Source: Dudresnaya verticillata
Lineage: Eukaryota
Assembly (NCBI GenBank): GCA_977862235.1
Contig: OZ374562.1
Coordinates: 1,612,001-1,676,000 of the forward strand
Length of the DNA: 64,000 nt
Direction: 5' to 3'
A program made the position numbers and the translations under genes. This document shows positions 2,202 through 35,249 of the stretch, piece by piece. The notes under the pieces were generated by a model. That model was not told the origin of the DNA, searched no databases, and was given only the letters and a program-made list of their open reading frames with translations. Within the stretch, counting starts at the first letter, position 1, and each line of letters starts with the position of its first letter.

Positions 2202-2207
2202 TATAAA
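2202..2207 (+). promoter_or_regulatory. putative TATA box (TATAAA) of the first pyruvyltransferase-like gene
   Basis: TATAAA in a very GC-rich context, ~55 nt upstream of the ATG at 2260 (context CACCATGG). Confidence 0.45.
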
Positions 2208-2259
2208 CCCGCGCGACGCCCCGCCCCCGTCCCGCCGAACCGCCCCACCGCAACCCACC

Positions 2260-3843
2260 ATGGACGCCCCGCTGCTCGCCGCGCTCGCGCTGTCCGCGCT
2301 GTTCGCCGCGCGCTTCACGCGCGCCGGAAAGCCCGGCGCGCCGCGCGTCGTCACGCTCGTGCTCTCCGCGCTCGTCTTCGTCGTCGCGTACGTCCTCGGC
2401 CTGGCCACGCTGGGCCGCCAGCTGCCGCATCTACGCGCGGCCACCGCCGTCGCGCCACCAGAAGCCGCCGCGCCGGATGCGCTGAAGCGCGCCCCAGCGC
2501 CTGTTGGTGGGCCACTAAAGGGTGCTGGAGTTGGATCTGGTGGGAAGGGCGCTTTGGCCCCTGTCAAGAGCGCTGCTGCTCCCCCTGCTATTGCAAGGGC
2601 GGACGATGATGACGAAGAGGCCGACAGACAGGGCTCCGCGGTTGCGGCAGCGCCTGTCGCGCCGCGTAAGCTGGAAGATACATACATTGTGTACGTTCCG
2701 GATCGCTCTGGGCTGTATAGCGGCAACCTGCCGGCGGAGGCGGCGCACACGTCGTACGCGGGAGCAATGGCGGACCACAATCTAGGCAATGTGGGAAACT
2801 TTGTGTGGCAGTACGGGGCTTATGTCGGGCTGCCGGACTTTTCGTCGACACGGACGTGCAATGTTTCGCGGGGGGCGTGTGACAAGAAGCTGCGCGAGGA
2901 GGGCGGGAAGGGTGTGGTGGAATACCGGCCTGTGTCCAACTTTTTTAACAAGCAGCGCGGGAACGACTTTGGGTACGACAACGGACTGATTGACCGCAAC
3001 GGAATCATGCCGCTGTTCGTCGGGATCGGGGTGCAGGACTACTTCAACCCTGACGCGGACAACGACATCGTTTCCGGACCGGAGATCGTGACGCGAGCGC
3101 AGGACTTTGAGTTTCGGCCTGGTGAGCGAGGCGTTCTGACCAAGCTGCAGAAGCACAAGTTTCCGATGCTGGTGCGCGGGGACTACACGCGGGACGCAAC
3201 ACGGGCGTTTGGGTACGAGTACGCGGTGTCCAACGGGTGCCCTAGCCTGATGATCTCGCGCGACGTGCATCTCGGACAGACACTGCAGCGCAAGTACGAG
3301 GCGCTGCGCGGGCGGATCGGGGACCGCAGCCTGCGCGTGGCGATCAACATCAAGAACAAGCCCGGGTTCACGCGGCTGTATCTGGGGCTTCTGAAGCGGT
3401 ACCCGAACAGCTTTGTTTATGCGCAGGGGATGGGGGACTTCCGGGCGCTGCGCGACGCCGGCGTGGGATTTGAGCGGATGCGGATCTTCAACACGGTGGC
3501 CAAGTGGCGCGAGAGCGTGGCCACGATGGACGTGTCGTTCGGCGGACGCATTCACGGGAATATGGTGTCGCTTAGCGTGGGTGTGCCGGTGGTTGTGATC
3601 GCGCCCGACCACCGCGTGCTGGAGCTGGTGAGGCGCATGAAGGTGCCGCATACGCATGTCTACGCGGGGGCCGTGGATGTGGACGCGGAGGTGGACGTGG
3701 CGCGCGTGGCCAGCTCTGCTGGGTTTGATGGGGACGCGTTCGATCGGAACCGTTGCGAGATCGCGAAGACTTATGTGGACGTGCTGGGGCGGTTTGGGAT
3801 CGGGGTGCAGGCACATGTGCGCGCGATTGCGGGGCTGTGCTAG
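2260..3843 (+). CDS. polysaccharide pyruvyltransferase-family protein with N-terminal membrane anchor (~527 aa)
   Basis: Within ORF 1942..3843; likely start is ATG 2260 (MDAPLLAAL). Hydrophobic N-terminal segments, then an Ala/Pro-rich stem, then a domain with GNVGN, LVRG, SNGCPSLM and GGRIHG motifs typical of PS_pyruv_trans-like GT-B proteins. No intron needed. Confidence 0.75.
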   Translation: MDAPLLAALALSALFAARFTRAGKPGAPRVVTLVLSALVFVVAYVLGLATLGRQLPHLRAATAVAPPEAAAPDALKRAPAPVGGPLKGAGVGSGGKGALAPVKSAAAPPAIARADDDDEEADRQGSAVAAAPVAPRKLEDTYIVYVPDRSGLYSGNLPAEAAHTSYAGAMADHNLGNVGNFVWQYGAYVGLPDFSSTRTCNVSRGACDKKLREEGGKGVVEYRPVSNFFNKQRGNDFGYDNGLIDRNGIMPLFVGIGVQDYFNPDADNDIVSGPEIVTRAQDFEFRPGERGVLTKLQKHKFPMLVRGDYTRDATRAFGYEYAVSNGCPSLMISRDVHLGQTLQRKYEALRGRIGDRSLRVAINIKNKPGFTRLYLGLLKRYPNSFVYAQGMGDFRALRDAGVGFERMRIFNTVAKWRESVATMDVSFGGRIHGNMVSLSVGVPVVVIAPDHRVLELVRRMKVPHTHVYAGAVDVDAEVDVARVASSAGFDGDAFDRNRCEIAKTYVDVLGRFGIGVQAHVRAIAGLC

Positions 3844-4395
3844 ATGTTGTAGCGGTGGTGTAGTGAGTGTGACTGTTTGGGTGCGTGCTCTTGTTGGAGG
3901 GGTTGTACGGGCAGCGGAGATGGTCTAAAAGTTGTGGTAAAGGTTGTTGTGCTCGTGAAGGTTGTGCGTGCGGGTGATTTGCGCGACGGGTGAGAGGCAG
4001 CAGCGGGCAGGCAAAGTTTGCCTCACCTCGCCAGAGCTTTCCGAACTCGGAGGCCGAGGCGGAGGCGTTTTTGCGGTATGCGGCACGCAACGCGGCAAAG
4101 TGGCTGTCAGGCGCGCGCGCGACAGCGGAACGCGCGGTCGCCGTTGCGCAGACAGAGCCTCTCAGAGGCGCTGAGAGAAGCGATCTGCAGCGGCTGCGTC
4201 CGGAGCCGCGCGTGACAAGTGATGTTTGCTCCGCCACACCCGCCGCGCCGCCGCCGCCGTTCCTGACAGTCGCGCCGCATTGCCAACACACCTGTCACGC
4301 CCCTCCCTCTCCCGCCGATTACCGCACATCCACCCTTCTCCGCCCCCGCCCCCACCCCGTCCCTCCCCCTCCTCCCCGCCACCACCCCCACCGCA

Positions 4396-6855
4396 ATGGA
4401 CCCCAACCCGCCCACCCCCACACCCGCCCCCCCGCCGCCTCCCCCACCCCCACCGCCGCGCCGCCGCCGCCAGCAGCTCACGCTATTCCTGCAGGTCGCC
4501 GTGTGGTGGGGCGCCAACAACGCCTTCGCAGTCGACGCGCACCGCCTGCTGGCCGCGCACCCAGCGCACGTCTTTGTCGACCTAACCTTCACGCAGCTCT
4601 TCCTAGGCCTCGTTCTCTCCGCGCTATACCACGCGCACGCGCGCCCCTCCACGGCGAGCCGCTCGCTGCGCGCCGCGGCGCGCCCGCGCTCGGCGCCCGC
4701 GCTGCTGGCCGCGCTGCTGCATCTGTGCGGCTCCGCGCTGACCAACGCGTCGTACCGCGCCATCGGCGCCGCGTCCACGCTGGTGTGGAAGCTTTCCGAG
4801 CCCGTGGCCACGGTCGGCCTCAAGCGCGTGGTGCTGCGCGAGGCCACGCCGCCGCTCTCGCTGCTCGGCGTCGCGTGCGTGCTCGCCGGCGTCCTGATCT
4901 TCTCCGCGCGCAGCCTCACCGCGCTCTCCGTCTCCCCGATCGTCCTCGCCAACCTCGCCTTCCCGTCCCGCAACGTCCTGCTCAAACTCGACCAGCGCAG
5001 AGACACTTCCCCCGCCTCGCCCTCCTCCCCCACCTCCTCCGGAGCCGCTGGAGCCGCACGCCCCACAGAGCTCCGCTTCTTCGCCCTCCACGCCGCAGCC
5101 ATCCCGTTCGCAACAGTCGCTCTCCTCGTCAAGCTCATCTTCACAGGCCCGTCCCTCGCACTCGCTCCTGTCATGATCCGGAATGCCCTTCTCTTCAATG
5201 CATACCAGTTTGCCTCCATCGCCATTTTGGAAAAGCTCGACGCCCTCACACACTCCCTCGCCAACACCATGAAGCGCTTCACCGGCATTCTCTTGTCCTT
5301 CGTCGTCCTCCAGGAGGCTGTCGAGCCCCGCCACGCCCTCGGGCTCCTCTGCACTGTCATTGGCTTCCCCATGTACGTCTTTGGCGGAAAGAAGTTTACC
5401 GCCCCTGCATCGTCGTCGGACGTTCACCACACTCCACGGAAGGGAAGCAACTCCAGTAACAAGCGCTTGTACCTCTTGCTCGCAGTCGCCGGCGCTCTGC
5501 TCGCCGCCCTAGCCGCATCCTTGACGCATGCCGGTCACGTCTCCGGCATGGTCGACTCCCTCATTAACAGCCAAGTTTCCTCTGTTGGCGGTAGAGGTGC
5601 TAGAGCTGGTTCTGGTGTTAATGCTGGTGCTGATTCTCATTCTGGTGGTGGCAGCGCGGTGATGCCAAAACATCTCCCGCCCCAGTCTGCTCGAAAGTAC
5701 CTCGTCTTTGTACCGGACCGTTTTGAGTTGTACACAAAGGTGCAGCCGGTCTCTCGCATCTTCAAAAACTACGAAGAGGCCACTGATCCCGCGGGCAACA
5801 TGGGGAACAAGGTTTGGCGTCATGGGGCGTATCTGAGCCTGCCCGACTTTTCCGAAACAAAGACTTGCAATGGCTCGAAAGCAAGATGTGTTGACATGTT
5901 GAATCCGTCAGGAGACCATTCCCGCCTTGTCGAGTATCATCCGTGCGCCAATTACTTTAACCGGCAGCGCAAAGCAGACTTCGTGTACGACCTCCGCGCT
6001 CTCAAAAATCCGCGCATGGATATCCTGTACGTTGGAATTGGCATTCAGGCGTACTTCACACGCGACATGTCCAACAACGACCTCAACCCAGGCATGCGAA
6101 TCGAGTTCAGCCCGAAGGATTTCCGGTTTACACCGGGTGCGCGTCAGCTGCTTCGAGTCATGCAGCAGCGCAAGCTGCCCATGCTATTCCGCGGCGACTT
6201 CACATTACAAGCGACGCGGGAAGCTGGATATACCTACGGCATATCCAACGGGTGCCCCAGCCTGATGATCTCAACCGATGTACATCTCGGAAAGACACTG
6301 CAGAAGCGGTACGACGCCCTCAACCTCCGTGTTGGAGACAAGTCGCTCAAAGTCGCGATCAACATGAAGAACACAGCGCGCTACACGCAATTCTACAAGC
6401 GGCTCCTGGAAATGTACCCCAACTCCTTCATATTTGCGCAGGGAAGCGGGGACATTGCTGCACTGCAGGCCCAGGGCGTCCCGTACAGCCGTGTGAAGTT
6501 CTTCGAGGGCGTAGAAGAGTGGCGCGCTGCGCTACGAGAGATGGACGTGTCGATCGGGGCGCGAATCCACGGGAACATGATTGCGTTGAGCGTCGGGTTG
6601 CCTGTGTACGTCATAGCGCCGGACCATCGTGTACTGGAGCTGGTTCAACGAATGCGGTTACCGCATGTGACGTGGTACGATGATGGTCTTAGCACAGATC
6701 CTGGGGATGTCGCCGAGCGTATTGGTGGTTCCGGGTTTGACGGCAAGGCATTTGACGAAAACAGATGTCGAATTGCCCAGACTTACGTCAGCGTGTTTGG
6801 ACAGTACGGTATTCATGTATCAAAACATGTTAGGGATATTTCGCGCATATGCTAA
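4396..6855 (+). CDS. fusion of a triose-phosphate/PEP-translocator-like (TPT/SLC35E) transporter and a polysaccharide pyruvyltransferase-like domain (819 aa)
   Basis: The N-terminal ~330 aa are multi-pass hydrophobic with TPT motifs (VWKLSEPVATV, ANLAFPSRNV, LTHSLANTMKRFTGI). An extra TM and Gly/Ser linker follow, then a domain clearly paralogous to 2260..3843 (GNMGN, SNGCPSLM, GARIHGNM, IAPDHRVLELV). Confidence 0.8.
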   Translation: MDPNPPTPTPAPPPPPPPPPPRRRRQQLTLFLQVAVWWGANNAFAVDAHRLLAAHPAHVFVDLTFTQLFLGLVLSALYHAHARPSTASRSLRAAARPRSAPALLAALLHLCGSALTNASYRAIGAASTLVWKLSEPVATVGLKRVVLREATPPLSLLGVACVLAGVLIFSARSLTALSVSPIVLANLAFPSRNVLLKLDQRRDTSPASPSSPTSSGAAGAARPTELRFFALHAAAIPFATVALLVKLIFTGPSLALAPVMIRNALLFNAYQFASIAILEKLDALTHSLANTMKRFTGILLSFVVLQEAVEPRHALGLLCTVIGFPMYVFGGKKFTAPASSSDVHHTPRKGSNSSNKRLYLLLAVAGALLAALAASLTHAGHVSGMVDSLINSQVSSVGGRGARAGSGVNAGADSHSGGGSAVMPKHLPPQSARKYLVFVPDRFELYTKVQPVSRIFKNYEEATDPAGNMGNKVWRHGAYLSLPDFSETKTCNGSKARCVDMLNPSGDHSRLVEYHPCANYFNRQRKADFVYDLRALKNPRMDILYVGIGIQAYFTRDMSNNDLNPGMRIEFSPKDFRFTPGARQLLRVMQQRKLPMLFRGDFTLQATREAGYTYGISNGCPSLMISTDVHLGKTLQKRYDALNLRVGDKSLKVAINMKNTARYTQFYKRLLEMYPNSFIFAQGSGDIAALQAQGVPYSRVKFFEGVEEWRAALREMDVSIGARIHGNMIALSVGLPVYVIAPDHRVLELVQRMRLPHVTWYDDGLSTDPGDVAERIGGSGFDGKAFDENRCRIAQTYVSVFGQYGIHVSKHVRDISRIC

Positions 6856-7921
6856 AGTGCAGTGCACTGTTCCCTGTACTGCAGTTCACAATATCTTCAG
6901 GATCATAGGTTTATGACTTTCCCAGATTTACTGTATTAGTGGTGGGCATTGCGCGCTACTATTAGTATTGATAGGCGCCATAGCTGATCAAATGTGTCGC
7001 ACCATTTAGCCATCATCGAGTTTCCCTCTTCTCCGCAACACTCCTTCTACTGCAGTAGTGATCATTCCCCAGTCCGGTCCCTATCAGTGTGCCTGTCAGT
7101 ACACAGACCGTTCGATGACCGAGCCGGGACCAACTCGGGCGAACAATACGAACAATACTAACAATATAAGTTCAATATTACTACAATTTCCATCTACGCC
7201 GGGTGACCATCATTGTGAGGCGCAATTGGAATTCCTTTTGATGGTCAGGTCTAGTTTGGTTGCATTCTGTCGATGTTGATGTCGCATAGATGAAATGTGA
7301 TGGCGTTTCAAGGGCTCCAGGTCTAGTTTGCAGCATTTCACGCATGACACAGTCTGTGGTGATGCTAACATCTTTCTCAATATGAAGCTCCTCCAGTCCC
7401 ATTCTATAGAATGTTCTATACAGTATACCTTCAGGGCTTGTTTGGGCATGTCCTGCGGTTGTGTCCAGCCAACCTACAAATGGTGCACTTTTTATAATGG
7501 TGTCGGCGACGTTTCCTCACAGGACCAGACAAACCTAAATTGGCCGAGGCTCGGAGCCGCTTCGAATTGGCACGGCCCTTGAAGATTTCATTCGCGTCCT
7601 TGCATGCCTTTTCCTGACCTGCTCTGATCCTTGCAGGAGAGGAGCCTTGAGTGGCGTGAGGTGTCGCCGCACCTTTGTCTTGGGTACAAGTATTTCAAGC
7701 ATACTGTAGAGAACCGTTGCCAAGTGGCACTACAGGCTTACTAGCTTGAAGCTTTTGTTATGCAATTTAGAATTGTCAGCTCTACTCTAATCCAAGAAGA
7801 TGTTCCGTTGCAGGAACAACTTCTTCCGTTGAAGACGTAACATCTTCAAGCCTGTCCCCGGAGATAGATGCTTTGAACTACCATGTCCCCGGGGGTAGTT
7901 GTTCTGAGGGCATGGCGGTTT

Positions 7922-8831
7922 AACACTAATTTCGCCGGCTACAGAATTTCCAAAACAGAACAGAATTTTTTGAGGGTCCTTGAATCCCTGCGTTCGATAG
8001 CGCGTTGGAAAAGGGGCGCTAACCTGAGAATAGTGGTGCAAACAGATCGGAGGAAACGCAAATAGTTTCGGAGTTATGCGCTCCGGCATATGGCCCCCCC
8101 GAGGTCGAAAGTTCCCGAAAGTTGTGATTTTTCCGAAAAGTTCCAATTAAAAATTCTCCAGAAATTGATTCTGCCCCGTCCCGCTGCCCGCGCCCCCGAC
8201 CCCCGACCGCACACCGCATTCTGGCGACTTCCCGCCGCATTCCGACGCGCTCGGACTTGGCTTCCCACCGCATTCCGACGCGCTCGGACTTGGCTTCCCA
8301 CCGCATTCCGACGCGCGCTCGGCCACCTCCCCACGTCCGACAGCCACTCCCACCATCACCCTTCCTGGTGCTGCTACTGGCCCACGCATTCCGCATTCCG
8401 GCGCGTGCGCACACGCTCTGCTTCTGCCTTGCGCGTAATGAGGCGCGCTTCCCCACCCCCTCCCAGACCCGTAGTGCCGCTCGCCGCCCCAGACCGTCCT
8501 GTGACCGCACTCTGTCTCAAGGTCCCTGCCGTTCACCGACACCTCGCTGTCACCCTTCCCCGCGCTCCTGCGCACCGCGCCCGGCCGCATTCTGACACGT
8601 CCACATCAAGTTGCCGCATTCGGGCACACGGTCAGCCCCTCCCAGCAGTCCCCCTACACGCCTCCCTCACCCCTACCCCGCTCCTATGCGGCACGGCCAC
8701 CCGCATTCTGACCCTTCCTCACAACTGGGCCTACTACCCGCCCGACTTGGTACACTACCAGGTAGCTAAGCCGGTTGCGCACCCGCGGTTCGGACTTAAC
8801 TTGTGGCGTAGACGGGAGCTACAGGCGTCGA
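7922..8831 (+). repeat. left terminal inverted repeat (~910 bp)
   Basis: Aligns as reverse complement with 20853..21875; contains 33-bp tandem units at 8235, 8268 and 8301. Confidence 0.9.
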
Positions 8832-8901
8832 ATGGCCTTGCATTTCTCGTGTGCTGCATCAACCTGAGAGTAGAATTTACTGGTTGTAGCTGTTTCTCGT
8901 A

Positions 8902-11889
8902 TCAAGAGCCGGCATACCTAACTAACAACGGCGATTCTCTGATTCTCTTCTTGACGAGCTGCGGTAGACGTCTCTTCGTAAGAGCTTCGAATTCGACCAT
9001 TACGGTCGCGACGCCGACAGTACCAGTCCATGGCTGCTTAGTCGCTGAGTATATGGATGCCTTGTACTTTCCGTCCCAAGCACCCTTACCGTCATACGCC
9101 TCGTACCATATTATATACAGCTCAGTAGCCTTTCCCGTAGCGTCCTGCACAACATCTAGAATCTGTCCAACCCAAAATGGGCATCGTGCGGTGGCGTTCT
9201 CCCTCACAACGGCAACGAAGTAGTTCTTCGTGTACTGCAGGTCTGAAGAGGGGGTCACAGTTTCCTCCTCACCGTCATCCCCTTCCGGTACGTACTCCAG
9301 CGCCGCTCTTCCGCTGTACTTTTCCCTTGTCTCAAATATGTGTCCCATATCCCAATGAAACGTTTCCAGCCTATCTCTGTACACGTGGTCACGCAATTCC
9401 TGCAGCTCCCTCATGTTTCCCGTGTCATTCACACGTGTCTCTTCAGAACGAAACCTGTAGTTGACTTCCTTCAAATCTGGCGGCGATTTGACCACTGTTG
9501 CTGGAGTCTTGCCAAGGTCAGGAGGGGATAGTATGAACCCCTTATGCTCTCCTCCTGTCTGCAACGGAACCCAGTCATCCGCGCATGTCATTCTCAATTG
9601 ACAGCCTGTCACAAAAGCTGCAACAGATTCTGCCTCTTCCGTCGCAGCTGGACCCACACGGTGGAATCTGAAATAGCGATAGGTCGTGAATGCCTCAACA
9701 TTACCAATGCATCCTTCCTGTCGACACAGGCCTGAGAAATTCGCAATTTGAAGCATGCGACTGACAACTGGTTCTGGACTGTACGACTGCCGAAGCTCTT
9801 CCATCAATTCAGTCATTGTGACTGCGTCCCGAACTTTAAGCCGGCGTGCCGTGCACGAAAAGGCCTGATCTATATCTGTGTGAGTGTGCCCGACGGGCAG
9901 GAAAGACACGAAGACCTCTTGGAACACACTCCATGTAACAAGACTCTCCAGGTATGAGAACAAAAAGGTATTTTTGTTCTCTCTCGAACAGTTGTCTACT
10001 TGTAGAAATAAAGTCCCTTGTAGCTCTCCTCTGGACTGTTTGTCCGAAAGTGTTCTGTGCAACGCCTCGATAATGTGGTTCGCGCCGGTCTCGAACTCAC
10101 CGGTCATTGTGTACAAGTGCAGACGCTTCTCAGCCCTGTGTTCAAGCACCCCAATAAGCTTCGCTTTCATGGCATGCACAATGCTGGCTTTGGACGACAC
10201 CACAAAATGGGGAAGTCCAAATGCGGACTGATCAGCACCATCCACTATGAGGGAGCAATACTCTTGCGGAAATAGTATCGCCTTCTCACATTTTTTCTGA
10301 TATTCACGTCTCTCTGCCTGTATGAATTTCAAGTGAATGTTGCGCCGCCCATGCAGGTGTTCAGTGCCTGCTCCAGAGGTCCCTGCCTGAGCAAGTCGCT
10401 CCAGAATGAGTTCGCCTTCGCTGCACTTTGCAAATCGGTGTGTCTTTCGCACCTTAATGCGGGAGCAACTGTGTTTCTATACAAAGTAAAAGTAACTCTG
10501 ACACGGAATTTCCCTGTTTCTGTACAGCCTGGTGTGGTCCAATTTGAAGATGTCATACACAACTGATTTCTGAACGTAGGGGAGGTGTGACTCCCCATTA
10601 TCGGGCATTGGTTCAGCAGTGCTGTCTGCAAGACGTTCAAGGAAGCAAATGATAGTATCCTGCCGATGGGATGAGGTATCACGCCTCGCATTGTTTGGGA
10701 GCTGCAGCTTCCGGGACGGCCTCGTGCCTTTTACAGAGGTCTGTAAGTCACGGGAGAATCCAAAGGCCTGCTCCAGAAAGTTGTAACAGACCGGCTGGCG
10801 GTTGAAAAAGTATTTCATCTTTGTCGTGTCCAACAGATTGCGAACATTCGTTCGCCTTGCTTCTACGTTCATTCCGGCAATTTTGCGCGCCTCCGCCTTT
10901 AAGTACACTTGATCCACACTTTGGAAGCATTTCTTCCCGATACAGCATATCATTGACTGCGTGTTTGCGCGTTCCAGGTCTTTGAAGAGGTTCTTACGTC
11001 TCTTCTGAAGACTTCCTCTCCCACTGAATGTCTGCGGCTTTCTCTTCCTGTAAGTATACTTTCGCTTCGTCCTGACCTGCACCTTCTGAAAAGGGTCATA
11101 CGCATCGTCATCACTTTCCGACACGTGTCGTACGGCGTCCGCATCATCATGGCTGGCCTCCCTCAAATGCTCTCGCGGTTCACTCAATTCCTCACTGCTC
11201 GGAGCATTGCCAGGCGGGGGTGTTGTTCGAATTGACCGCGCTCCGGCATCCGCTTGCGGACCCGCACTTTGTTGGAGGGGTGATGCTGGCCTGGTTGTGT
11301 CAACTGGTATCATCTGCTGGGGCGATGCGGTAGGGGCCACCGCTGCGGCAGTGTTTTCTGCAGTTGACGTCGGGGGGCAATTGCTCAGTATTGGGTAAAT
11401 TCTGCGACGAACTATGGCCTGTCGTGGAGAGTACAACCGTCTCTGGCACAACGGCGCGATTTCTCGATTGCCGAGCTCCTGAATTTAGTTCACATCCCAT
11501 GCATGAAAACCCCCACCCATCTCCCCAAGTGTGTGCGGAACTGAGTCCGTTGTCTTGTACTTGTATTTGTACTGAAGTTTCTCATGCGGTTGCATGATTT
11601 GTGCTCGGTAAACCACAACCAATTTCTCCCCTTTTTTCTGACTGGGAGAAAATTTGTGGCCATGCAGGGTGACACAATACCTGCCAGACTGGTCTGCGTC
11701 CTCTTTTGTCCCCGGTCTCTTGACAATAGCAGTGCCGACCATTTCCCTTTCATACAGAAGAACAACACGCCCTTCGTTGCGCGCTTTGCCTCCTCCTTTC
11801 TTTGCTTCATTTTCTCGCTCAGCGCAATCCGTAGTTGACGGGCTCATTTCCATGTCGTTCAAAATGTCCTTCCGCGACGGCATGTGCAC
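8902..11889 (-). pseudogene. Sola-like (DUF7869-type) DDD transposase with premature stops
   Basis: ORFs 11485..11889, 10477..11451 and 8902..10452 are in the same frame, separated by single stops (e.g. YFYFV*KHS, probably TGG>TAG). Motifs RFAKC, IVDGADQ, QVDNCSRENKN, FLPVGHTHTDIDQ. Confidence 0.75.
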
Positions 11890-12639
11890 ACAGCTTGTGA
11901 GAGTGCCACTCGTTCTGTCTTCCCTTCAGGCTCTAAGCAGAGCGCCCGCTTTGCAGTCTGTTAAGGCACCTGGCCGACCTGGCGGGGAGGCGCAACCCTT
12001 CGCAGTAAAACGCTTGCGCAGTAAATACCCTCTGTGATACCGCGGCGCGCCGCCTGTTGCCTGCTCTTGACGCTGCACACCCATGGAGCGGCACGAGTGG
12101 CTGCACGGGGTGCATCTGGGTTATTCTGCGACCCAGATTCTGTTTGTGATCAGATTCTGGTTCTGCACTTGGCCAATTACATATCAGGACAACTCTCCGC
12201 ATGCCTGCGGAGCCACACAAGCTGCAGCTTCTGGGAGGCGGACACACACAGCTGACAGTCACCCTGGGGTGACCTGGCGGCTGCAGTGCGGCGACATTAC
12301 GAGTTGATATCGTTTTCACACGCTTCCAAGGAAGTCGCCGCACAGCATGAATGGCAATGCTGCTGCTCCAGTTGTTTCAGTCTCTCTGATGGTTTTGGGA
12401 TCGGCGAAGCAGACAACAGGGCTCGTATCTCTCCTCGACAGCAACGTCCGGTTCACGACGCACATCACCAAGCCTGGCGCGAGCGCGGGCATCATGGGCA
12501 GGCGCATTTCAGCCAAACGGGCCTAGCTCATCTCAGCCGTCCGCACTGCGAACCGTGTGAGTCGTCTGCAGATTGCCGTGCATGGGTGAGCATGCTCATC
12601 CTGGACGGTACGCATTGGCGGTCAAGAATTCAGCAATAG

Positions 12640-13540
12640 AGAAGCTGAGAATGTTGCCACGCCTGTGTATCCAAATGATGAACTTGTTCCTATCATTACA
12701 ACGAACTTGGTGGAAGAGTTAGAAAGCGGTGTATCTGTTATTGGCAATGACTTTCAAGAGCCGAATGTTTCCAGCTCAAGACAGAGGGAGGCTTCGACAC
12801 GTGCATCGAGAGCTTATGAATGTGTTAAACTCATCGGCCGACTCGCAACATTTGATTCAGGCGCAGTGAGTGTGATCAGCCCGGGCTGATCGAATGGCCA
12901 TTCGAAGAAGTGATGGTGCAAACATCTTCATCTAAGCTGTTATCACTGCTTGATATCGTCTTACAAAAGCTGCTTCGAGGGCTTTCTACGAATAGTTCTG
13001 TGCTCTCAGCTGATGCATTCACAGTCAGTCATCAACCTCTAACCGAAGGCACAAAGCCGAAGGGGAAGGAGCTCATTACCGCCATTTCTGATTCGCGTGG
13101 TGAAGAGGACGAACTGAGAAACACTGGAGCTAATAGGCATCGAATGATCAGTTTTGGTATGCTGTTGTTGGGAAGCACGATCAACAAGATCATGGACGTC
13201 GTAATGGGCTTTGGTACAGAATCACGTGAGTTACAAGCAATGGTAGAGCCCTTTTTGCCTATGGTTGTCCAATCGCTGAGAACATCCCAGGATTCCTTAA
13301 CTCTGAATGCAGTCAACAACGTGCAAAAGCTCCTGAAACTTACCCTTCCCAACAAAGCTTCCGTTGCAGGATAAATGTCGGAAACAATTGTCAGCGTTCT
13401 CTCACGAAAGGCAGGACTAGTCACATATACAGAAGACTTATTTCACGCTTGCCTGCGGGCAGCAGCGGCATTGATTTACGAAGTCGGCGGTAAGCAATTC
13501 AAGGTAACCGAGTCGAAGCTCTTGTTGGGATATCGTGTAA
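12640..13540 (+). pseudogene. UTP20: captured fragment of a UTP20-like (SSU processome HEAT-repeat) gene, part 1
   Basis: Broken helical-repeat ORFs (12665..12889, 12910..13374, 13375..) with ASRAYECVKLIGRL resembling the UTP20 C-terminal half; stops and frameshifts; boundaries approximate. Confidence 0.5.
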
Positions 13541-13589
13541 CTGCCTTGAGAATGCAAAGGCCGCATCAGGGGCTTGTATTGCAGTGCGG

Positions 13590-14140
13590 AAAACTTGACT
13601 ACCAGGATCCTGGTATTTCGGCATCTCCTTGAGCTCGAGCTCAAGGAGATGCCGAAACCTGGGGAGAAGAAGGAGTGTTGGCTTGTGCTACATGAAGTGA
13701 GTGCCCCGCAAAACGCTGGCGCCTTATTGCGCTCGGCGTACTTTCTCGGTGCGGACGGTGTCATTGCCTGTAAGAGAAATAGTACGAAGTTGACACCTGT
13801 GGTGTCGAAGGCGTCTGCTGGTGCACTCGAGGCGATGCCAGTGTACGGTGTTCGCTCTTTACCGAGCTTTGTCAGGGCAGCGAGGAGGGATGGATGGCGT
13901 GCGATTGGTACTGCCCTTGGGGACGGGACAGTCGATGAAAAGACGGCTGAGCTGGACAGTTCATCGCTGGTTGTGATGGGCAGTGAGGGGCATGGTCTGA
14001 GGACTATGGTGAGGTATGAGTGCGATTTACTGGTCAGGATACGCGGTCGAGAGGAAGAGGACGACGCGGAGGATGCCGTAGACTCTCTCATTGTGAGTGT
14101 CGCCGGTGCTGTGACGTTGTTTCAACTGTTAGGGCGATAA
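13590..14140 (+). pseudogene. captured 5'-truncated SpoU/TrmH-family (MRM1/RlmB-like) rRNA 2'-O-methyltransferase
   Basis: PQNAGALLRSAYFLG, VSKASAGALE, VMGSEGHGLR and DSLIVSVA (canonical SLNVS with N>I); lacks the N-terminal domain and a true start. Confidence 0.8.
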
Positions 14141-14214
14141 GCTGGAGATTTCTATTCATGAGTACGGGTCTTCCAAGGCGTTAATGATGGCGCTAGGATG
14201 AATTGTGGTTTTAA

Positions 14215-15534
14215 TTCAAGCACCTCTGCCTGCCTTCAGATACCGAAAATCGAAACGATGCTACTGATAATGCATTATCATGAGAAAAGCGAAACACGGA
14301 AGCGCTAACTGTAAACATCATGGCTGTAATGTGGCAAGATATGGACCTGGAAGGGCCATGGCATGCTTGACCGAGGCCACAGAAGCTAAGACACAATGGG
14401 AACAGGGGCTCTGGCAAGCGGCTCTGCAGGCCATCAATACAGTATTTCTCGAGTTCCCTGCGGAGGTGCTGGAGGCTAGCCTCACTCTGCTGAGTGGGAA
14501 TACTTGCACTGGGTGGCGAAGACCATGATGCGGACTGGAAGAAAACGTACGCCGTCTTGCAGGGCATAGAGATTGCTTTACGTAAGCAACAGGACAGGAG
14601 CAGGGCGTTACAGTTAGCATTGCAGCTTGTTATGTGCCCTTTGTGGGAGAGGTTGCCAGTCCTTTTAGTTCACAAACAGCAATGGATTCGACTGTCTTCA
14701 GCACAGCTCTTAGGAAAGCATTTATCTGCGTCAGGTGGTCGATATTCTTCTCCGAAGGAGGCCAACGACACTGTTCATTTTGTTTTGTGGTCAACAACTG
14801 GAACAGTCCGCGCCATTTTGAAGTCTAGCTGTCTTCAGCTAGAAGCAAACATTTATGAGAAGACCTAGCTCATCAGTGCTTGAAGAACTTACTTTGCATC
14901 GCACACGCGACCTACAATAATTCTGATATTGCAGAGCTCGCGGAAAGTGACAGTACAGCAATGGGGGGCAGCAGTGTAGCTAAAGAAGAAGATTCTTCCG
15001 GGCTGTGGTGCCTGCTGGCACGAATGAGTGGGCTTTCTGTGCAATTCGGTGAGACAGAAGCAGCCATGCTTCATCGAGGCTGCTCATTACGATTCTTACT
15101 GATAACAAGCAAATGGGGGGGCTTTGACTGGGTCCAACGCCAAAAGGAGTTTAACATTTCTCCTGTTGTCAAAATGTTTGGAGTCTGGGCAGGGTTCACA
15201 TAAGACTAGCATGGCCGCTATCAATGCTGGTGTCAACAATGAGTCTAGACGCAGCTACTCAGCTGAGAAAAGCCAGATGCTAAGTGTCGAAAACTTGCGG
15301 GCGATGGCAAGCACACTTCAAGAAGCGCTAATTGACGGGCTCGGCGCAACAGAATACTACGGGGTATATCAAACCTTTCGCCAGAAGCGAGAGGACCAGA
15401 AGCAAGGGAGAAAACGACAAGCGGTGCTTGAATTGGCAGTCAATCCCGAGCGAGCAGCAAAGAGATGTAGGAAAAAGGCGGATGATCGGAAACATCGGAA
15501 AGCAGGCCGTGATGTGAATAGGCGACTATTCTGA
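14215..15534 (+). pseudogene. UTP20: captured fragment of a UTP20-like gene, C-terminal part
   Basis: WERLPVLLVHKQQWIRLSSAQLLG and the basic tail KREDQKQGRKRQAVLELAVNPERAAKRCRKK match the UTP20 C-terminal pattern; several frameshifts. Confidence 0.6.
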
Positions 15535-16600
15535 CGCGCGTCAGGCGGACTGGAAGGGGAGTCGGGCAGGATACCGTGAGTGATGGATTCGCGGGGCGGG
15601 AGTCGTCGCGGCGAGGGTAACGGCGTTTGTGGGGCAGTGTGTTGTGGCAGGCGTATTTGTGTCCACATTCTGGGCATTCAGGTCGTGAGCTCGCAGCGCC
15701 GAGGCCAGATAGATTGTGGAGTTTGCGTGCTCTCAGGACCTGTTCCCCGATACTGATATTGCACTTTGGGCTTCTGGGTTGCCGTGAAGCGCAATATCTG
15801 TTCTCATAGCAATGTGACTTGGCCGCATTCAGAAGCTGTAAAGGTGTTGACGGCGGCCCAATGGAAATACCCTTTTACAAGCTTATTCAATATCATTGGA
15901 CAGAAAATCTATACAGGTTTTTCAGCGCGCAATTTGCCACATCAAATGAACAGCTATTTGGCCCGGTGCTCTCGCCCAACCTGTTCCCTGATACTGATAT
16001 TGCACCCACAGGTGTTGACACCTCCCACCCCCGAGAACCTGTTCCTCGTAAATTGACCGCCGCGCCCCCTGCTGGCACGCCGCTGGAAACGGTGTGCCAG
16101 TACTCACCGAAACAGTATGTGGCATGCTATTTTGCTCGCAGTATCAGCACCTGGCCAGGCCGGCCTCAACTTCAAAGCCCGGCCAAGTCGGCTGGGACAG
16201 CGAGCAGCATGCCGTAATTGACTTTGTTACATCTCGCCGTGCAGGTCCGGTGAAACCTGCATTCTACCAATTCCAACTGTACGGCCTGTGCTAAGAATAG
16301 TTCTGATGGAGACTGCCCACACCCGGTGAACAATCCACGTGACCTCCCGTGCCATCTCAGAATTTGCGGCACATCCATGTCGACAGTACGATCGTACTCC
16401 CGCCGTCCAGTGTGTCGAAAGCCCGTATGGTGTCAGTCGAAAACGGCACCCTGCAAACATGAGCCGGGGACGTAAAGAACTTGTTGCGGGAGGTTTTCTG
16501 AACAGAATCTGGACAACTCGTCGGACATGCTGTACCCCTTTCCGAACTATTTCAAGGAGAGCGGTTTTCACCTGCACAGTGAGTCCTTCTCTCGCACACC

Positions 16601-19600
16601 ATGTCTAAGCGCAAGAAGCGGAGCAGGGGGTCAAGTGAGCCCTTGAGGAAGGAGGAGATGGCACAGGCACTGTTTGGAGATGTCATGGAGGGGTCTACCA
16701 ACATTCGAATAGACCCCAGGTCCTGTGTTCCGATGACTGATATAAGGGACATCTCGAGATCCGGTGTTGAGAGGCTCAAGAAGATTTTCAGGGGTGGTGG
16801 GACGAGGAGCGCTAACTACAACAACGGGTACATTGCCGGTTCTGATGCGCCCATACTGGCTCGCCTAACAGGTCCCTTCAGGAGTTTCATTTTTGAGTTT
16901 CTACGAGCTAAACGGAATGCGGATGGGACAGGGTACACAGAGAAACAGGTGAAAGAAGAGGCCTCCAGTCGGTTGGAGTGGTTCGGAGTTGTTGATGGCA
17001 TGCATCAACTTATCGCCGTTATGGAGCTAATCGATGAAGACCGGGAGACATGGAAGGGGTTTGCTTTGACTGCCACTATGCTTAAAGGGGGGCACAACAT
17101 CCAGATTCTGAAGAAACTGGCTCTTCATCAGAACAGAAAGTACGACTCCAGCTTTTTTGTAGAGACCACGTTTTACGATCAGATATGCGGTCTGAGGAAA
17201 GCGGCAGACCGTCTCGAAGCCAGTAATGGGAAGATTCCGACTGCGACGGCAGTTGCCGAAGCATATGATGGATGCAGTCACCTATCGGAAAACACTATCA
17301 AACAGACAGCGGCAACCGTTCTTGGTCTTGACCGTCGAGTTATCGATGCAATTGGGAAGGTAATGAAGGAGGAGGTCCCTGAACTAGCAACTATGCAACT
17401 GTTGACTGCTTCCGGAAAGGCCATAGACTCAAATGTTCCGATGCAGAATCTGGATTGCAGAGTATACAGACGCTTCATTCAAGTCAGTTCCATCAAGTCT
17501 TCCAAGGCCTTTATGAATGCAGGCAGCTCTGACAACGGCATTACTGTTCAAATAGCTACCCTGTACAGGCTTCGAGAGGTGTCAAGGACACACAATTTCA
17601 AACCTGTTTCGGCCAAACACACACAAGAGCAATTCGTGAAAGCTTCAGCCGCCCTTTCCGAGACTCGGATGTTTGAAGCGATGAGGGAGAGGACAGAATG
17701 CCTGTCAGGCATGGTTACATTAAGAGAAAACCTGCTACACGCTACGAAGCTGGACGTCGAGGTCATCATGAGTCGAGGTAATGACCGTACACTGTTGAAA
17801 ACAATAGTTGAGATGTACAGAGAGTGTTGTCCGGAAGAGGCCCCAGTGAAGTTGCAGAAGTACAAAGATCTGCAAACTGTGATGGATTCGACAGAAGGCA
17901 GACGTGATGACGCTGTCATGACCCGCCCGGGTTCCAATGAATGTGGAGCAAAAGATTCTGACGGTCAACAGAATTTGGACTGCACGTTGTCACCGCAGGT
18001 GGACGCTACCGGAATCTCTAACGACGACGAGGTTTTAGACTTAGTAACATCAACCAATTCGAAAAGGGAAGAAGGTTGCGAACCAGCAGAATCTGGACAG
18101 GCACCCGTCCAGAACGCAGACCCTACAGCTGCATGTGCAGCCAAAGACCATTATGTACCGGAAAAGAGTCCCAAAGACCCCACTATATCAACTGTGTCAT
18201 CAAAGCAGTCTGTTCGCCTCAACATGGGTACTAAGCCTGTGCTGGTGGAGGATGGATCGCTTTCTGTTCCAATAGATTATCTTGCGTAAATGAAACTGAC
18301 ATGCTTTCAGATGACATGGCAGAGCTACGACAGTACCGTTAGGAAGGAAGGTGACAAACGATTCGATTTAATCCTCACAGATCCACCATATGGTACACCG
18401 AAATCGCAGTCTAAGTCGGGGAGTTCATTCTATAATTACCTCAGCGAGGAAGACATTAAGAAGATAGTAGAGTTCTCGAGGCGCGTACTTGTAGCAGGGG
18501 GTGGTTGTTTGTTTTCACGTCATTCCTGAACTTCAGTGTATTCCACGATGCTCTGAAGAAGGCACAATTCATGTGCCCAGCATACCCATTCGTATTCTCC
18601 AAAGACCCCAAGACCATGCAGGAACATCGGGGGAGCGATATGCCCCAGAACTGTGTGGAAATGGCCATCATGGCGCGTGTCGCAGGTCAGCATGGCGGAG
18701 GGTTCTCGCTCGACCTTAGGAGCGAGTATCACTGCATCCCCTCCCCAGAAAAGGGGAAATTCGCGTCCATGTCCTCTCTACCAACACCGAAACACAAGTT
18801 GCTACGCCCAGGCACAAAGTCCCCAGTTCTGGTCGAAGAGAAGTCTCCCGAAGTACTTGTGGAGATAATGACAATATTCTGTCCGGAGGGCGGGTCAGTT
18901 CTGGATATGCACAGCGGAACCATGACGACTGGGATTGCAGCTCTCAAAACAGATTGTCGGTGTACACTAATCGAATCACAGGTCGAAACATTCAAGCTGG
19001 GGGCTGAACGTTTGCGTAGGCTTTTCACGGAAGCATATGAAATGAAGACAGGTCGTAAACGTTTGGAATCAAGTGCTCATGACGAACTGAATGGTATCGG
19101 TGAGGCAGCAAGAGGTAGTGTTGTCAAAACACATTCTGCTCAACCAACAAACCATTCCGTAACGAGGAAGGGACCTGAAATGTCCCATCTGACGACACCG
19201 TCCGAGCACGTATTGGATGTCCCCGAAGAGAGTATCGAGAAGCACGGCAGGAGTGAAGACATAGTTGTAGGAAGTGTGGAGCTGAATGAAAATTGCAGGA
19301 GAAGGAAAACACCTGAACCTTGTGCAATGCCCAAGGCCGGAGACAAAGTCACGCTTCTTGCAGATGATAAGGAAGTGGGGGAGGCCGTGTTGCATCCTGA
19401 AAAGACTCCAGGAGGGAACTGGAATGAACGCTTGCACGGCCACGATCTGTCAGAATCTGCCAAACCAGGGGAGCATCTTGTGGTCGTCTACAGTTTGAAG
19501 GTCATGGCAGAGTATGAGCTAAGTTCGTATCCGTATATATTCAAGGGAGTAGAGGACCCTCCTGCCAATCTCAAGGGCCTAAACGGCTTGTTGTTCTCGT

Positions 19601-19632
19601 GGGACTTGCACAACATGAAGAAGATTGGGTAG
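16601..19632 (+). pseudogene. ParB/Srx-like domain + beta-class DNA amino-(N6A/N4C) methyltransferase + C-terminal beta domain; one in-frame stop and one frameshift
   Basis: 16601..18289 (SRSGVERLK..., FGVVDGMHQ resembling ParB DGxHR) is followed in frame by 18290 (FDLILTDPPY). After a frameshift near 18500 come EKSPEVL..FCPEGGSVLDMHSGTMTTGIAA..CTLIE. Motif IV precedes motif I, the beta arrangement. Confidence 0.75.
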
Positions 19633-20140
19633 GAATTATAGTCAGTACAGTACTATTGTCATAGGCCGAATTGAACATTTCTCGAGCATCCGTATTCTGA
19701 ACACGTCTTTGCGTCTTGCTTCCGCCATGGTCCATGAATTCGACGTTGTTCAGGCACCATTTACTCGAATAACGCCAGTGCTTCCACGTGCCCTACTATG
19801 AACCCGGGGGTTATATTTGGTCCACCAAACAGAATCTGTCACGGAAGGCTGTCGCGAGTGTGGCACATGTACCGTACTGCTGCAGCTGTTGGCAACGTTG
19901 CGGCATATTGGCAGTAAGTGATTGATCGACTACGTACCGGAGTGCGCCCAGGGCTGTCTCCAACGCATATGAAATGGACACCCGTGAGCTCGTGGAAAGA
20001 TGGACCATGTGTTGTCCAGGCACGCAGTGATCCTGTCGCAGTTAAAGGCCTCGGCCATTTCGGAAAGAGAGCTGAGATGAAACGAAGTGTTCGTTCACCA
20101 CCGTAATCTGCTGTGACCAGAATACCGCTGTATTTAGACC

Positions 20141-20662
20141 ATGGATGACTTGATTCTGGATGTGGAAAAGCTGTACAACGCCGTTAAACATCGGATGGAG
20201 GAAGATCTCAATCTTGAGGCACGAAAATGGACGCATCAAAGCCCTAGCAGTGACGATGACATTCTGGACAACCACAATGACCTGGATCGTGCCCAAATGG
20301 CTTGGGAATCATCACAGCAATTTTACGCAGACAAGACGATGATGGAGCATTCCCACCATCAGAAAGCTTTGGAAAAGTTGTACAGGTTGTTGCTGAAGAA
20401 AATCTTTCTCGTGGGAAGGGGCAAGTACGTACGCGGTGCAGCCCATGCTATAGACTTCGCGATCGTGGAAACGCTGCACAGGGGCGGAGAGAACGCGTAT
20501 CAACTGGACCGCTACACACGTCTGCTTTGTACAAAATTCTACATGTCCAACAGCCGCGCAATGAAACCGGAGGTGAGGATGTGCATCATGAGGAGCCTGA
20601 ACAATGAACTGTCTAGTTGTGAAGGGCTGTATATGCGGAGGCATGATAGCAGCGATTGCTAA
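20141..20662 (+). CDS. hypothetical alpha-helical protein (173 aa) inside the TIR element
   Basis: ATG-started uninterrupted ORF with protein-like composition; no family recognised. Confidence 0.35.
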   Translation: MDDLILDVEKLYNAVKHRMEEDLNLEARKWTHQSPSSDDDILDNHNDLDRAQMAWESSQQFYADKTMMEHSHHQKALEKLYRLLLKKIFLVGRGKYVRGAAHAIDFAIVETLHRGGENAYQLDRYTRLLCTKFYMSNSRAMKPEVRMCIMRSLNNELSSCEGLYMRRHDSSDC

Positions 20663-20852
20663 CTTTAGAGATAGTAAAGTGGTGGCCTTCTCCCATGAGT
20701 ACAGCAATGCGCTTCATTCCATTTGGCGGCCTACAATCGGGGATGTGCCCCATTGAAGTATGGCATGGCCGTCAGCTGTGGCGCAATAAACGCGGCGCAG
20801 ACAACAGAATGCAATGGGGTCAGGCTGGCATTGTGCAGAACCGCAAGAGAAA

Positions 20853-21875
20853 TCGACGCCTGTAGCGTCAGTCCACGCCACAAGTTAAGTCCGAACCGCG
20901 GGTGCGCAAGTGGCTTAGCTACCTGGTAGTGTACCAGGTCGGACGGGTAGTGGGCCCAGTTGTGAGGACGGGTCAGAATGCGGGTGGCCGTGCCGCACGG
21001 GAGCGGGGTAGGGGTGAGGGAGGCGTGTCGGGGGACTGCTGAGCGGGGCTGAACATGCGTCAGAACGCGGGCACTTGATGAGGACGTGTCAGAATGCGGC
21101 CGGGGGCGGTGTGCAGGACCGCGGGGAAGGGTGAGGGAGGCGTGTCGGGGGACTGCTGGGAAGGGCTGACCATGCGCCCGAATGCGCCAACTTGATGTGC
21201 ACGTGTCAGAATGCGGACGGGCGCGGTGCGCAGGAGCGCGGGGAAGGGTGACGGCGAGGTGTCGGTGAACGGCAGGGAGCGTGAGACAGAGTGCAGTCAC
21301 AGGCCGGACTGGGGCGGCGAGCGGCACTACGGGTCTGGGAGGGGTGGGGAAGCGCGCCTCATTACGCGCAAGGCAGAAGCAGAGCGCGTGCGCACGCGCC
21401 GGAATGCGGAATGCGTGGGCCAGTATCAGCACCAGGAAGGGTGATGGTGGGAGTGGCTGTCGGACGTGGGGAGGTGGCCGAGCGCGCCGGAATGCGGTGG
21501 GAAGCTAAGTCCGAGCGCGTCGGAATGCGGTGGGAAGCCAAGTCCGAGCGCGTCGGAATGCGGCGGGAAGTCGCCAGAATGCGGTGTGCGGTCAGGGGCG
21601 GGGGCGCGGGCAGCGGGACGGGGCAGAATCAATTTCTGGAGAATTTTTAAATGGAACTTTTCGGAAAAATCACAACTTTCGGGAACTTTCGACCTCGGGG
21701 GGGCCATATGCCGGAGCGCATAACTCCGAAACTATTTGCGTTTGCTCCGATCTGTTTGCACCACTATTCTCAGGGTAGCGCCCCCTTTCCAACGCGCTAT
21801 CGAACGCCGGGATTTAAGGACCCTCAAAAAATTCTGTTCTGTTTTGGAAATTCTGTAGCCGGCGAAATTAGTGTT
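20853..21875 (-). repeat. right terminal inverted repeat (~1020 bp)
   Basis: Reverse complement of 7922..8831 plus an extra ~117-bp internal duplication (units starting ~21012 and ~21129). Confidence 0.9.
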
Positions 21876-23500
21876 GTTTGGGCTACTGTAGAAGATACCG
21901 TTTACGAATAGAACAACTACTTTATCCATACCGTTTAGAATCAGCAGTAGTGCTTTTCTTTATCAAACTCATAGAGTAGGCTCGGAGCTTTGGAGCAAGC
22001 GGCTCCGTAATAGAATATAAAAGCTCCGCCCTTTTCTCTCTCGAGGAAGAAAAGGGCAGAGGTCTTCGTATTGAGCACAAACAAGACAGCATGCAACAAG
22101 TCAAGGAGGAAGTGTTTATAATACACCCTGTCACTCGTCGTAGCGCCATGGCCTCTTGCCGGCTGAGACTGGGCCTTGTTACTTGATACATTTTGGATCT
22201 TTGACGCTTCTAAGTTTTCAGCAGTCGCCATGTCTTCTCGTTCAGGGCTGATTCTATTATTTGCTTCGCTCTTATCGATTTTCGAAGAGCCATGCACAGC
22301 AACTTGTCGATCTGTCGTCCGTCGTTGAACCCTGGCCTTACCATCGTGGATCACTTTCTGTCCCTGCAGAGGTCCTTGAGCAACAAAAGCGGTGTTTGCG
22401 CCGTTTCTAGGGTTTCTGCCTTGAAGAAATTTTGCATCGTATTACTGAAGCGAAGAATGTACACCGGTTTGTAGAAAACAGAACTAAAAATATGCTGAAG
22501 AAACCTTCAGAGATGCTTTGAAGCCCTGACAAGGACTGAAAAAGAGAAAAACATGTGGGTGAAGGAGCAAGAGCGAAGAGTGTGGTGCAAACTGTCTCTT
22601 GACGGGTAGCACGTCCGGGGTTCGGGGCCCGGCGGGTAGTGTCGTCCTACGACGGTAGTGGTAGAGTGGTGGGCAACGCCATAGGGCGTACTGTAAACGC
22701 CCGGGGGGAATTCGGGTAAAGGAAAAGGAAAAGGAAAAACAATAGGCAAGAAAAACAAACGAAGCACGTTTATGAGACCGTAGGAAACGTGGAAGCACGA
22801 AGGTACTGACGTATAAGAATCAGGCTGCGGTAGGTGGTACGCGCAAGCGGAGAAGGACATTCAAGTCCCGGACTGGCTTAGCCGAGTTTATTGTGACGTC
22901 TTCAGACGGACTAATTAAGTACTACTACTACGCTCCTGGCGGTGGCAGTACGCAGACGCGCGGGAAGTCTGAACACGTCTCGTTACGGCGCTTGTCTGAC
23001 AAGTACGGTCGCGATGCAGCCCTGTGCTGATAGATCCGTGCGCCCTCGTTGCTGACAGATACGCACGCACCCGTTGCTTACATAAACACGTGGACACGGC
23101 CTATGCTTTACAGTGTGTTCCACGCTTATACCGTACACGTGTGTGATCCCATTTCCCTGCTATGCGCATGCCCGCGTGTACCAGGTGTATGCGTACAGCC
23201 GCGTATGCCACGTCACAAGCACTCGGCATTTCGCCGCACCTGAGCCGCGGCCGAATTGGCCACGGTTTGTACGCCAATGGCGGTTTCCTTCCGCGAAGCG
23301 AGCGGGCTGGCGCCAACGCCTGTGGGAGGTTATGAAATTGCGTCCCACGCCGAACGGCGGTAAACGCCCGTCTTCGACGGTATCCACACGCCTGCGGCGG
23401 TAAGATATATCAGGGGCTCCGCGCGTAGTTTGCACCACAAAGACCGGGGAGAGCGAGTGGAAAAAGCGAAACAGACATGCCGGAGTGTACTTGACGCATT

Positions 23501-24275: not shown

Positions 24276-24769
24276 TGGGAATACCGAGCTGATCGGGTCC
24301 AATGCGGAGATTGTATGCCATCGCCGTTGTTCGACGCCAGGGGGTTCCCTTTATTAATACTACAGCTAGACAGCTCTGTGAAACCCATAGTAAATCGTGA
24401 CTTGCGTACGCAAGCTCCGTTCCCAACAGCCATGGACAAGTGCCGCAACAGGCACCAGCGATCCCGACGTCGCCGATGATGGACGGCACGTCACTGAGGC
24501 CCTCGCCCTAGTCCTGGCCACAGACCAATCATGTAGAAAGGCATAGCATCCCGGCACATTTTAGCAGCGTAAGCTCGCAGCGCAGACCCAGCGCACATAC
24601 GTACCCTACATTAGAGCGCATCGCTCGGAGCATCAGAACGGCGAGCCGGTTGATTACTCAGCACGCATCCGTACTCTGTACAGAGCTCATCTCATGGCCC
24701 CACGGCAGGTTGGGAGTCGGGTCTATTGGCCTGCGGGCGCTTCGTCGTCTTCAGCGCCAACAGGTTACA
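24276..24769 (-). repeat. solo-LTR-like dispersed repeat, copy 1
   Basis: Diverged reverse complement of 58116..58599; reads TGTAAC...CCCA on the minus strand with AATAAA near the 3' end; no TSD seen. Confidence 0.6.
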
Positions 24770-34483: not shown

Positions 34484-35248
34484 TGTGGTGCAACGGCAAG
34501 GAGGCCACCAAAAGGAAGCAAATCGACGGGCCAACTGTACGATCGGCCCAACCAAACGAAGACACTTGGCTAATGAAGTCGTGCCGTCGGCGCACGGACG
34601 GCGGTGAGCGCGCGCAAGTATGAAACGTGGCCACCGACTGTACACGTGGCTCACACGTGGCCACCTACGACACCTAGGCGCACCACGTGGCCCGCTGTAC
34701 ACGCATGATCTGATTTTGCGGCCAGACGCAAATCGAAATTGGATTTGGCCGCACGGTGAATCAAAAGGAAGACAGTGGAAAAATCAAGGGAAAATCTAAC
34801 TCGCAGAGCCAACCATTAACGCACAAGTACTTGGTTTAGTCTCGCAAGGGCCTCACATTGGCCCGACGCCGGAACACAAGTAGATATTTATGGCCGACCT
34901 GAGTAACCTCGGCCACTAACTGTAGAATAGCTCTAGATTAGCTCAGATAGCCGATTTTGGGCCTACTTAGCTGGCCACACACTACGGCTAAGCCGAAAAA
35001 GGTACGAAGCCGTCCCGCCAGAGGTTGGGAGTAAAGTTAACAACTGAACCCCCGACTTGGCCATTCTCCGTCCTCATCACGGATTCTGGCCACGACTTCG
35101 TCTGCGCGCTCCCGCTCTACCACGCTTGCTACCGGCGTGCAGGTCCGTTCTACGTTCTGGCCAGTTTTGGTTGAATCCGACAGGTCTTTGTGGTCTTCTT
35201 GGGGTCTCGTTTGGCTGCCGTACGCGGTGGTCCACTAGAGATACTGCA
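34484..35248 (+). repeat. 5' LTR of element A
   Basis: Direct repeat of 47032..47796, about 15 substitutions by eye. Confidence 0.95.
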
Positions 35249-35249
35249 C

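Follow-up and report, generated by a model that had tools for sequence, protein, structure and literature searches.

The window analysed here is a 64-kb stretch of Dudresnaya verticillata DNA (contig OZ374562.1, positions 1,612,001 to 1,676,000). It contains a transposon of ~14 kb, at 7922–21875 of the window, that carries two divergently oriented genes: a minus-strand transposase and a plus-strand accessory gene predicted to encode a ParB-fused DNA methyltransferase. From left to right, the element and its flanks comprise:

7918–7921, plus strand: left target-site duplication (TSD), GTTT
7922–~8847, plus strand: left terminal inverted repeat (TIR) of 926 bp, starting AACACTAAT, with 33-bp tandem units and 8 CCGCATTC boxes
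8902–11925, minus strand: DUF7869 (Sola1-like) transposase frame
11488–11781, minus strand: domain X (~100 amino acids, aa), at the N-terminus of the transposase
16601–19632, plus strand: accessory gene, encoding a ParB/Srx-like N-terminus, a helical region, an acidic linker, a beta-class amino-methyltransferase and domain X
19333–19629, plus strand: domain X, at the C-terminus of the methyltransferase
20837–21875, minus strand: right TIR of 1039 bp, with one additional 117-bp unit and 8 inward-reading CCGCATTC boxes
21876–21879, plus strand: right TSD, GTTT

The initial annotation of this DNA had described TIRs of ~0.9–1.0 kb with a GTTT TSD, a minus-strand DDD (three-aspartate) transposase, a divergent gene of ~1000 codons with DGMHQ followed by DPPY, and a copy disabled by mutation; all of these were recovered. 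The two TIRs are identical in 881 of 922 aligned columns and match perfectly over their outermost 60 bp. The termini read AACAC...GTGTT with GTTT on both flanks and, among seven end registers compared, only this AACAC/GTTT register combined a duplication with perfectly inverted ends. The terminal 18-mer has just two sites in the window, namely the two element ends. Within the arms the CCGCATTC box is present in 8 + 8 copies, in a single orientation, as against 5 in the remaining 62 kb of the window, and no 8-mer exceeded 4 copies in a shuffle control (300 rounds). No methylation scar was seen in the differences between the TIRs (20 transitions, 21 transversions) or in dinucleotide ratios.

The transposase matches Pfam DUF7869 (E 1.3e-47) and bears the motifs DGADQ(S), DNCSRENKN and GHTHTDIDQAF. 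The three Asp-bearing motifs are kept in 104, 103 and 108 of 111 matches, a conservation that points to a catalytic (DDD) role. The frame is interrupted by in-frame stops at 11485–11487 and 10477–10479, with no frameshift. We take DUF7869 to be the Sola1 transposase domain, helped by an Ectocarpus precedent discussed below. Sola elements are described as having 4-bp TSDs, TIRs of 11–1124 bp and very variable termini (PMC10741241). The GTTT duplication and the arms of 926 and 1039 bp fall within this description; the termini begin AACAC here and AACCG in the Ectocarpus element. The window element is probably a Sola1-type cut-and-paste transposon. Two other assignments were tried and rejected. 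EnSpm/CACTA elements (here Plavaka) are recognised by a CACTA terminus and a 2–3 bp duplication; in the window element CACTA sits 2 bp inside the end, its register yields no duplication, and the only Pfam match is DUF7869. The Sola2 motifs DFxENY, SDGxxxQYKN and FFATSHGKxxCDG (PMC3627910) were not matched by DGADQS, DNCSRENKN and GHTHTDIDQAF when compared by eye with the first of the two parts of the published alignment. None of 511 viral-contig candidates for the transposase was confirmed. The C-terminus of the protein (8902–9200, minus strand) forms a conserved beta-rich domain (FWxG...V.WYE...W) with no Pfam match, which by eye has some likeness to chromatin-reader barrels.

The accessory gene runs from an ATG at 16601 through DGMHQ (DGMHR in its 8 closest matches), a stop at 18287–18289, DPPY, a frameshift near 18497–18502 and VLDMHSGTMTTG to its end at 19632. 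With two stops in one gene and a stop and a frameshift in the other, the window copy encodes neither protein whole, and it could be mobilised only in trans. The broken pieces on their own match Pfam N6_N4_Mtase at E 0.014 and 0.0014, under the Pfam cut-off, which intact relatives clear. Of 7,998 candidates obtained with the first 632 codons as query, 8 proved to be relatives; four of these 8 are proteins of 887–1010 aa with PF01555. A profile built from 11 sequences then collected 217 clusters (50% identity, E up to 1e-30), the best 150 of which are the relatives listed. N6_N4_Mtase matches 37 of 38 chosen relatives (E up to 0.01). None of the methylase candidates was confirmed among metagenome contigs (0 of 198) or viral contigs (0 of 49).

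The initial annotation had named a placement among RNA or protein methyltransferases as an outcome that would refute it; the profiles and folds of intact relatives instead group the accessory protein with DNA methyltransferases. The best matches of a 62-sequence methylase profile were M1.HpyAVI (E 4.5e-19), M.BceJIV (structure 8urk, 4.6e-15) and CcrM (3.4e-9), with MT-A70/METTL3 at E 0.005, and the PHROGs and NCBIfam matches are DNA methyltransferases. For structure comparison we used a whole-protein model of the intact relative P0008 (predicted local distance difference test, pLDDT, 84); a first model made from 11 sequences (pLDDT 45) was not used for structure search. Eleven beta-class DNA enzymes matched the P0008 model with Z-scores of 19.4–23.7 (CcrM 23.7, M.BceJIV 23.1, M1.HpyAVI 21.9, N4CMT 19.9, PvuII 19.4), as against 14–15 for METTL3 and MTA1, and Foldseek aligned its methylase part to CcrM at E 7.9e-12. 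Motif IV (DPPY) precedes the S-adenosylmethionine (SAM)-binding motif I, as in beta-class DNA amino-methyltransferases. We therefore predict a ParB-fused enzyme of this class, on the strength of profiles and modelled folds. DPPY is typical of bacterial N6-adenine enzymes and SPPY of most N4-cytosine enzymes (PMC8885841); the motif therefore favours N6-methyladenine (6mA) as the putative product over N4-methylcytosine (4mC), a preference we hold with some but not great confidence.

The N-terminal fold (P0008 residues ~20–175) resembled ParB-like 5k5d (Z 8.4), PadC (8.1), KorB (6.7) and Srx (6.4), with SerK and SbnI lower. The nucleotide-binding motif G-x-x-R-x-x-A is intact in 21 of 51 full-length relatives. 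Among viral proteins the best structural match, aligned across 783 columns, comes from a phage and is annotated as ParB/Sulfiredoxin; it suggests a phage origin but does not establish one. Methylases of another group fused to ParB and helix-turn-helix domains are on record (PMC4738411).

How far the pairing of the two genes extends beyond the window was examined at 73 transposase loci, six of which could be tested, having 2.9 kb or more of sequence upstream of the transposase match. A divergent methylase gene lies upstream of the transposase in four of these six (L001, L007, L015 and L016). At two further loci, L022 and L024, a gene encoding ParB, methyltransferase and SET domains faces the transposase convergently. 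Each of the remaining loci had less than 2.6 kb upstream, with no methylase match there. Contig sizes tell a similar story: among the 20 methylase contigs that reach 5 kb, 11 are exactly equal in size to a transposase contig, where 0.2 would be expected and the maximum in 20,000 jitters was 4. All 11 are roomy enough for both genes, and they collapse to five element families. Across ten pairs (the window, four loci and the five size-paired elements) methylase and transposase identities co-diverge (Mantel rho 0.94, p 2e-4), and the transposases of linked elements are merely 25–74% identical to each other. The initial annotation would have been refuted by family copies that lack the methylase or by a host gene captured in this copy alone; relatives hold the gene beside their transposase and it is no one-off capture. 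We regard the two-gene arrangement as integral to the family with very little doubt.

Some of these loci deserve a brief description. The AT-rich L016 (1095–8339) has a ParB-methylase frame of 1335 codons (DPPF); this frame is intact, and so is the divergent transposase, which is 25–28% identical to the others. L022 (4404–8887) and L024 (4516–8790), on the minus strand, hold intron-split genes for ParB-like, DPPW methylase and SET domains, with short inverted repeats between the two genes. No terminal repeat pairs were found in the seven relative loci checked.

A second tie between the genes, absent from the initial annotation, is domain X. Its two copies in the window are 35% identical (E 7e-15). 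A profile from seven seeds found the domain in 11 of 142 proteins of the transposase set and 38 of 179 of the methylase set, both sets being redundant and partly fragmentary. In each of the five size-paired elements one gene carries it and the other lacks it, and in the window copy both have it; none of the 73 transposase loci carries one. Domain X gave no sequence match in Pfam or the PDB, no usable Atlas match (the Atlas models being poor) and no likeness to the transposase C-terminal domain, and a complex prediction of the two copies made with alignments unused scored 0.00. Since the domain is able to sit on either protein, its distribution hints that methylase and transposase may act together.

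In the set of 51 relatives that are 780 aa or longer, the catalytic motif varies: 18 have DPPY/F, 13 retain the Asp although the motif around it has changed, and in 20 the motif-IV Asp is gone. The clade that holds the closest relatives has DPPY in all 8 of its full-length proteins and keeps the SAM-binding motif, down to ~40–45% identity. Motif and modelled fold together make it quite probable that this clade encodes an active DNA amino-methylase. Among distant genes, DPPF is kept at L016 and DPPW at L022 and L024.

Taken as a whole, we lean slightly towards reading the window element as a decayed two-gene transposon whose intact copies likely methylate their own DNA, probably at adenine N6 rather than cytosine N4. 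The transposase would bind the repeated arm boxes, cut at AACAC and excise the element. The ParB/helical half would carry the methylase onto element DNA, for which the CCGCATTC array (CCGCATTC/GAATGCGG) is the obvious candidate target, and the self-written mark might keep the element expressed or tune access of the transposase to its ends. That methylation is mainly self-directed we consider somewhat better supported than not. A bolder version, to which we give a low probability, joins all parts in one machine at the ends: the ParB half would load on the CCGCATTC arrays and write 6mA, which would license or limit cutting, a self-encoded analogue of Dam control of bacterial transposons. Domain X would be the shared module, and the cassette, derived from a phage, would have accompanied DUF7869 transposons since long ago and become a catalytically dead binder in some lineages.

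Several observations weigh against self-methylation by a two-gene family. Two loci have the transposase and no methylase match: L012, which extends 5.4 kb upstream and 4.5 kb downstream, and L071, which extends 3.3 kb upstream. One chance size match, P0174/P0055, is too short for both genes; five of the ten co-divergence pairs depend on size matching, and shared host ancestry would yield an equal correlation. Pfam ParBc matches none of the 38 relatives (there is a single DndB match, E 5e-4), and the ParB-range Z-scores are moderate, close to those that common structural arrangements give. By Z-score, 4mC enzymes come only a little behind 6mA enzymes. The TIR boxes may be used solely by the transposase. 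A further point is the loss of the motif-IV Asp in the 20 full-length relatives, which affects entire clades with long frames still open and includes the accessory genes of L001 and L007, beside open transposase frames; methylation is therefore not required in every lineage.

This last result is the chief support for the alternative that survives best, in which the accessory protein acts mainly as a cofactor that binds DNA or blocks chromatin, by way of its ParB clamp, helical region and domain X, and methyl transfer is dispensable. It also gains from the N-terminal half of the protein, which is conserved as strongly as the transposase. The unbroken retention of DPPY and the SAM-binding motif in the nearest clade, together with the DPPF and DPPW of distant genes, speaks against it, and we think it unlikely.

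Slightly less likely again is an active enzyme that works genome-wide, methylating a short motif and so altering host chromatin or marking insertion sites. The closest solved relatives are indeed short-motif enzymes, and the methylase has been tied to the arms by reasoning rather than by measurement. The long ParB/helical half and the domain common to the transposase nevertheless point to local targeting, and the tight cis linkage of the two genes is more easily explained by a local benefit. Methylation of element transcripts by an RNA methyltransferase is improbable: MT-A70/METTL3 have the permuted fold and appear among both profile and structure matches, but the eleven DNA enzymes stand 4 to 9 Z units higher and the PHROGs and NCBIfam matches agree with them. 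Finally, passive cargo, with the methylase gene taken up from the host in the way that the UTP20 and MRM1 pieces of the window copy were (see below), is very improbable and largely refuted by the linked loci, the captured pieces being truncated whereas the methylase is whole in design and linked across elements with divergent transposases.

The two-gene design and the idea of self-methylation have precedents in algae. Sola1-1_Ec32 of the brown alga Ectocarpus (PMC12477816) is a giant Sola-type element of 21.5 kb with 282-bp imperfect TIRs, a 4-bp TSD and, as in the window element, termini starting AAC (AACCG-CGGTT as against AACAC-GTGTT). It too carries an opposite-strand gene, whose product of ~1,000–1,100 aa combines an N4/N6 DNA methyltransferase with a ParB-like domain and was proposed to bind and modify the element itself. 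It differs from the window element in its length and in its TIRs, which are 0.9–1.0 kb here within 14 kb; this comparison is by description and not by sequence. The novelty implied by the initial annotation was overstated, because both architecture and hypothesis had been published for this element. In red algae, a Bostrychia preprint describes the Plavaka accessory genes PAG2 and PAG3, with methylase-SET and ParB-2-oxoglutarate oxygenase genes on EnSpm/Plavaka and other elements (bioRxiv 10.1101/2025.02.11.637652). These likewise place a PF01555 methylase and ParB-like domains on giant algal DNA transposons; they move between superfamilies, and self-modification was proposed for them, but they are separate genes, whereas the window has one ParB-methylase protein on a DUF7869 element. 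The ParB-methyltransferase-SET genes of L022 and L024 look intermediate between the two designs. The window element thus joins a design already reported in algae, and the pairing is shown here to be old and family-wide. The available portions of these accounts do not describe domain X on transposases, catalytically dead clades, arrays such as the 8 + 8 CCGCATTC arm boxes or captured host-gene pieces in the spacer, and that of Sola1-1_Ec32 does not mention co-divergence. We found no published functional test of a transposon-borne methylase and no family survey beyond these two algal papers, in a search that left most subscription journals outside.

Elsewhere, the bacterial beta-class N6-adenine enzymes CcrM, M.BceJIV and M1.HpyAVI have the same fold and the same order of motif IV before motif I. 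The accessory protein is ~20% identical to such enzymes and to phage ParB-annotated relatives, adds a 250-residue helical region, the acidic linker and domain X, and resides on a eukaryotic transposon. N4CMT of bdelloid rotifers is another beta-class bacterial-type amino-methylase in a eukaryote; it is encoded by the host, combines SPPY with a chromodomain and silences transposons (PMC8885841), while the accessory protein is transposon-borne, DPPY-bearing and ParB-fused. If self-marking is right, the protein would act on the DNA of its own family, as does a known anti-silencing factor. That factor is VANC, encoded by VANDAL transposons, which removes 5-methylcytosine and is not a methylase.

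Self-marking can be tested directly in this family, which is large and offers intact members (P0008, P0005 and P0003), naturally dead clades and, in the TIRs, an array that may be the target. If true, it would provide a route for bacterial-type 6mA/4mC writers to reach eukaryotic genomes and spread there, and would warn against taking algal 6mA maps as host-made.

The spacer between the two genes and the region inside the right arm hold further features, of which the host-gene pieces had gone unmentioned in the initial annotation:

12856–15534, plus strand: UTP20-like decayed pieces (Pfam UTP20 E 1.6e-4 and UTP20_C E 3.7e-4, both under cut-off), with the MRM1 piece in between
13540–14140, plus strand: C-terminal ~40% of MRM1 (SpoU, mitochondrial rRNA methyltransferase), with a frameshift at a 42-bp palindrome (13616–13657)
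20141–20662, plus strand: 173-codon open reading frame (ORF) just inside the right arm, with no Pfam match and no relative among the fetched sequences

The MRM1 piece is 69% identical to its best match, and this SpoU methyltransferase bears no relation to the DNA methylase of the accessory gene. Judged by sequence, the UTP20 and MRM1 pieces (12300–15534) are a Pack-type capture, separate from the methylase; the perfect palindrome at the MRM1 frameshift looks like a fold-back scar.

Outside the transposon, neighbouring genes are compact and intron-poor. Tandem paralogous host genes lie at 1933–3843 and 4267–6855, the second with a triose-phosphate-transporter-family domain fused to a polysaccharide pyruvyl transferase domain. 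A second inverted pair (24276–24769 and 58116–58599; ~500 bp, 81–87% identity, 33 kb apart) probably represents two copies or ends of another repeat. Decayed endonuclease and reverse-transcriptase-like frames at 27612–30516 resemble, by eye, a long interspersed nuclear element (LINE) remnant. Long terminal repeat (LTR) retrotransposon-like elements occupy 34484–47331 and 48001–57203, whose direct repeats are 98–99% identical over 300 bp or more, and the first of these elements has additional long minus-strand ORFs at 43347–46965.

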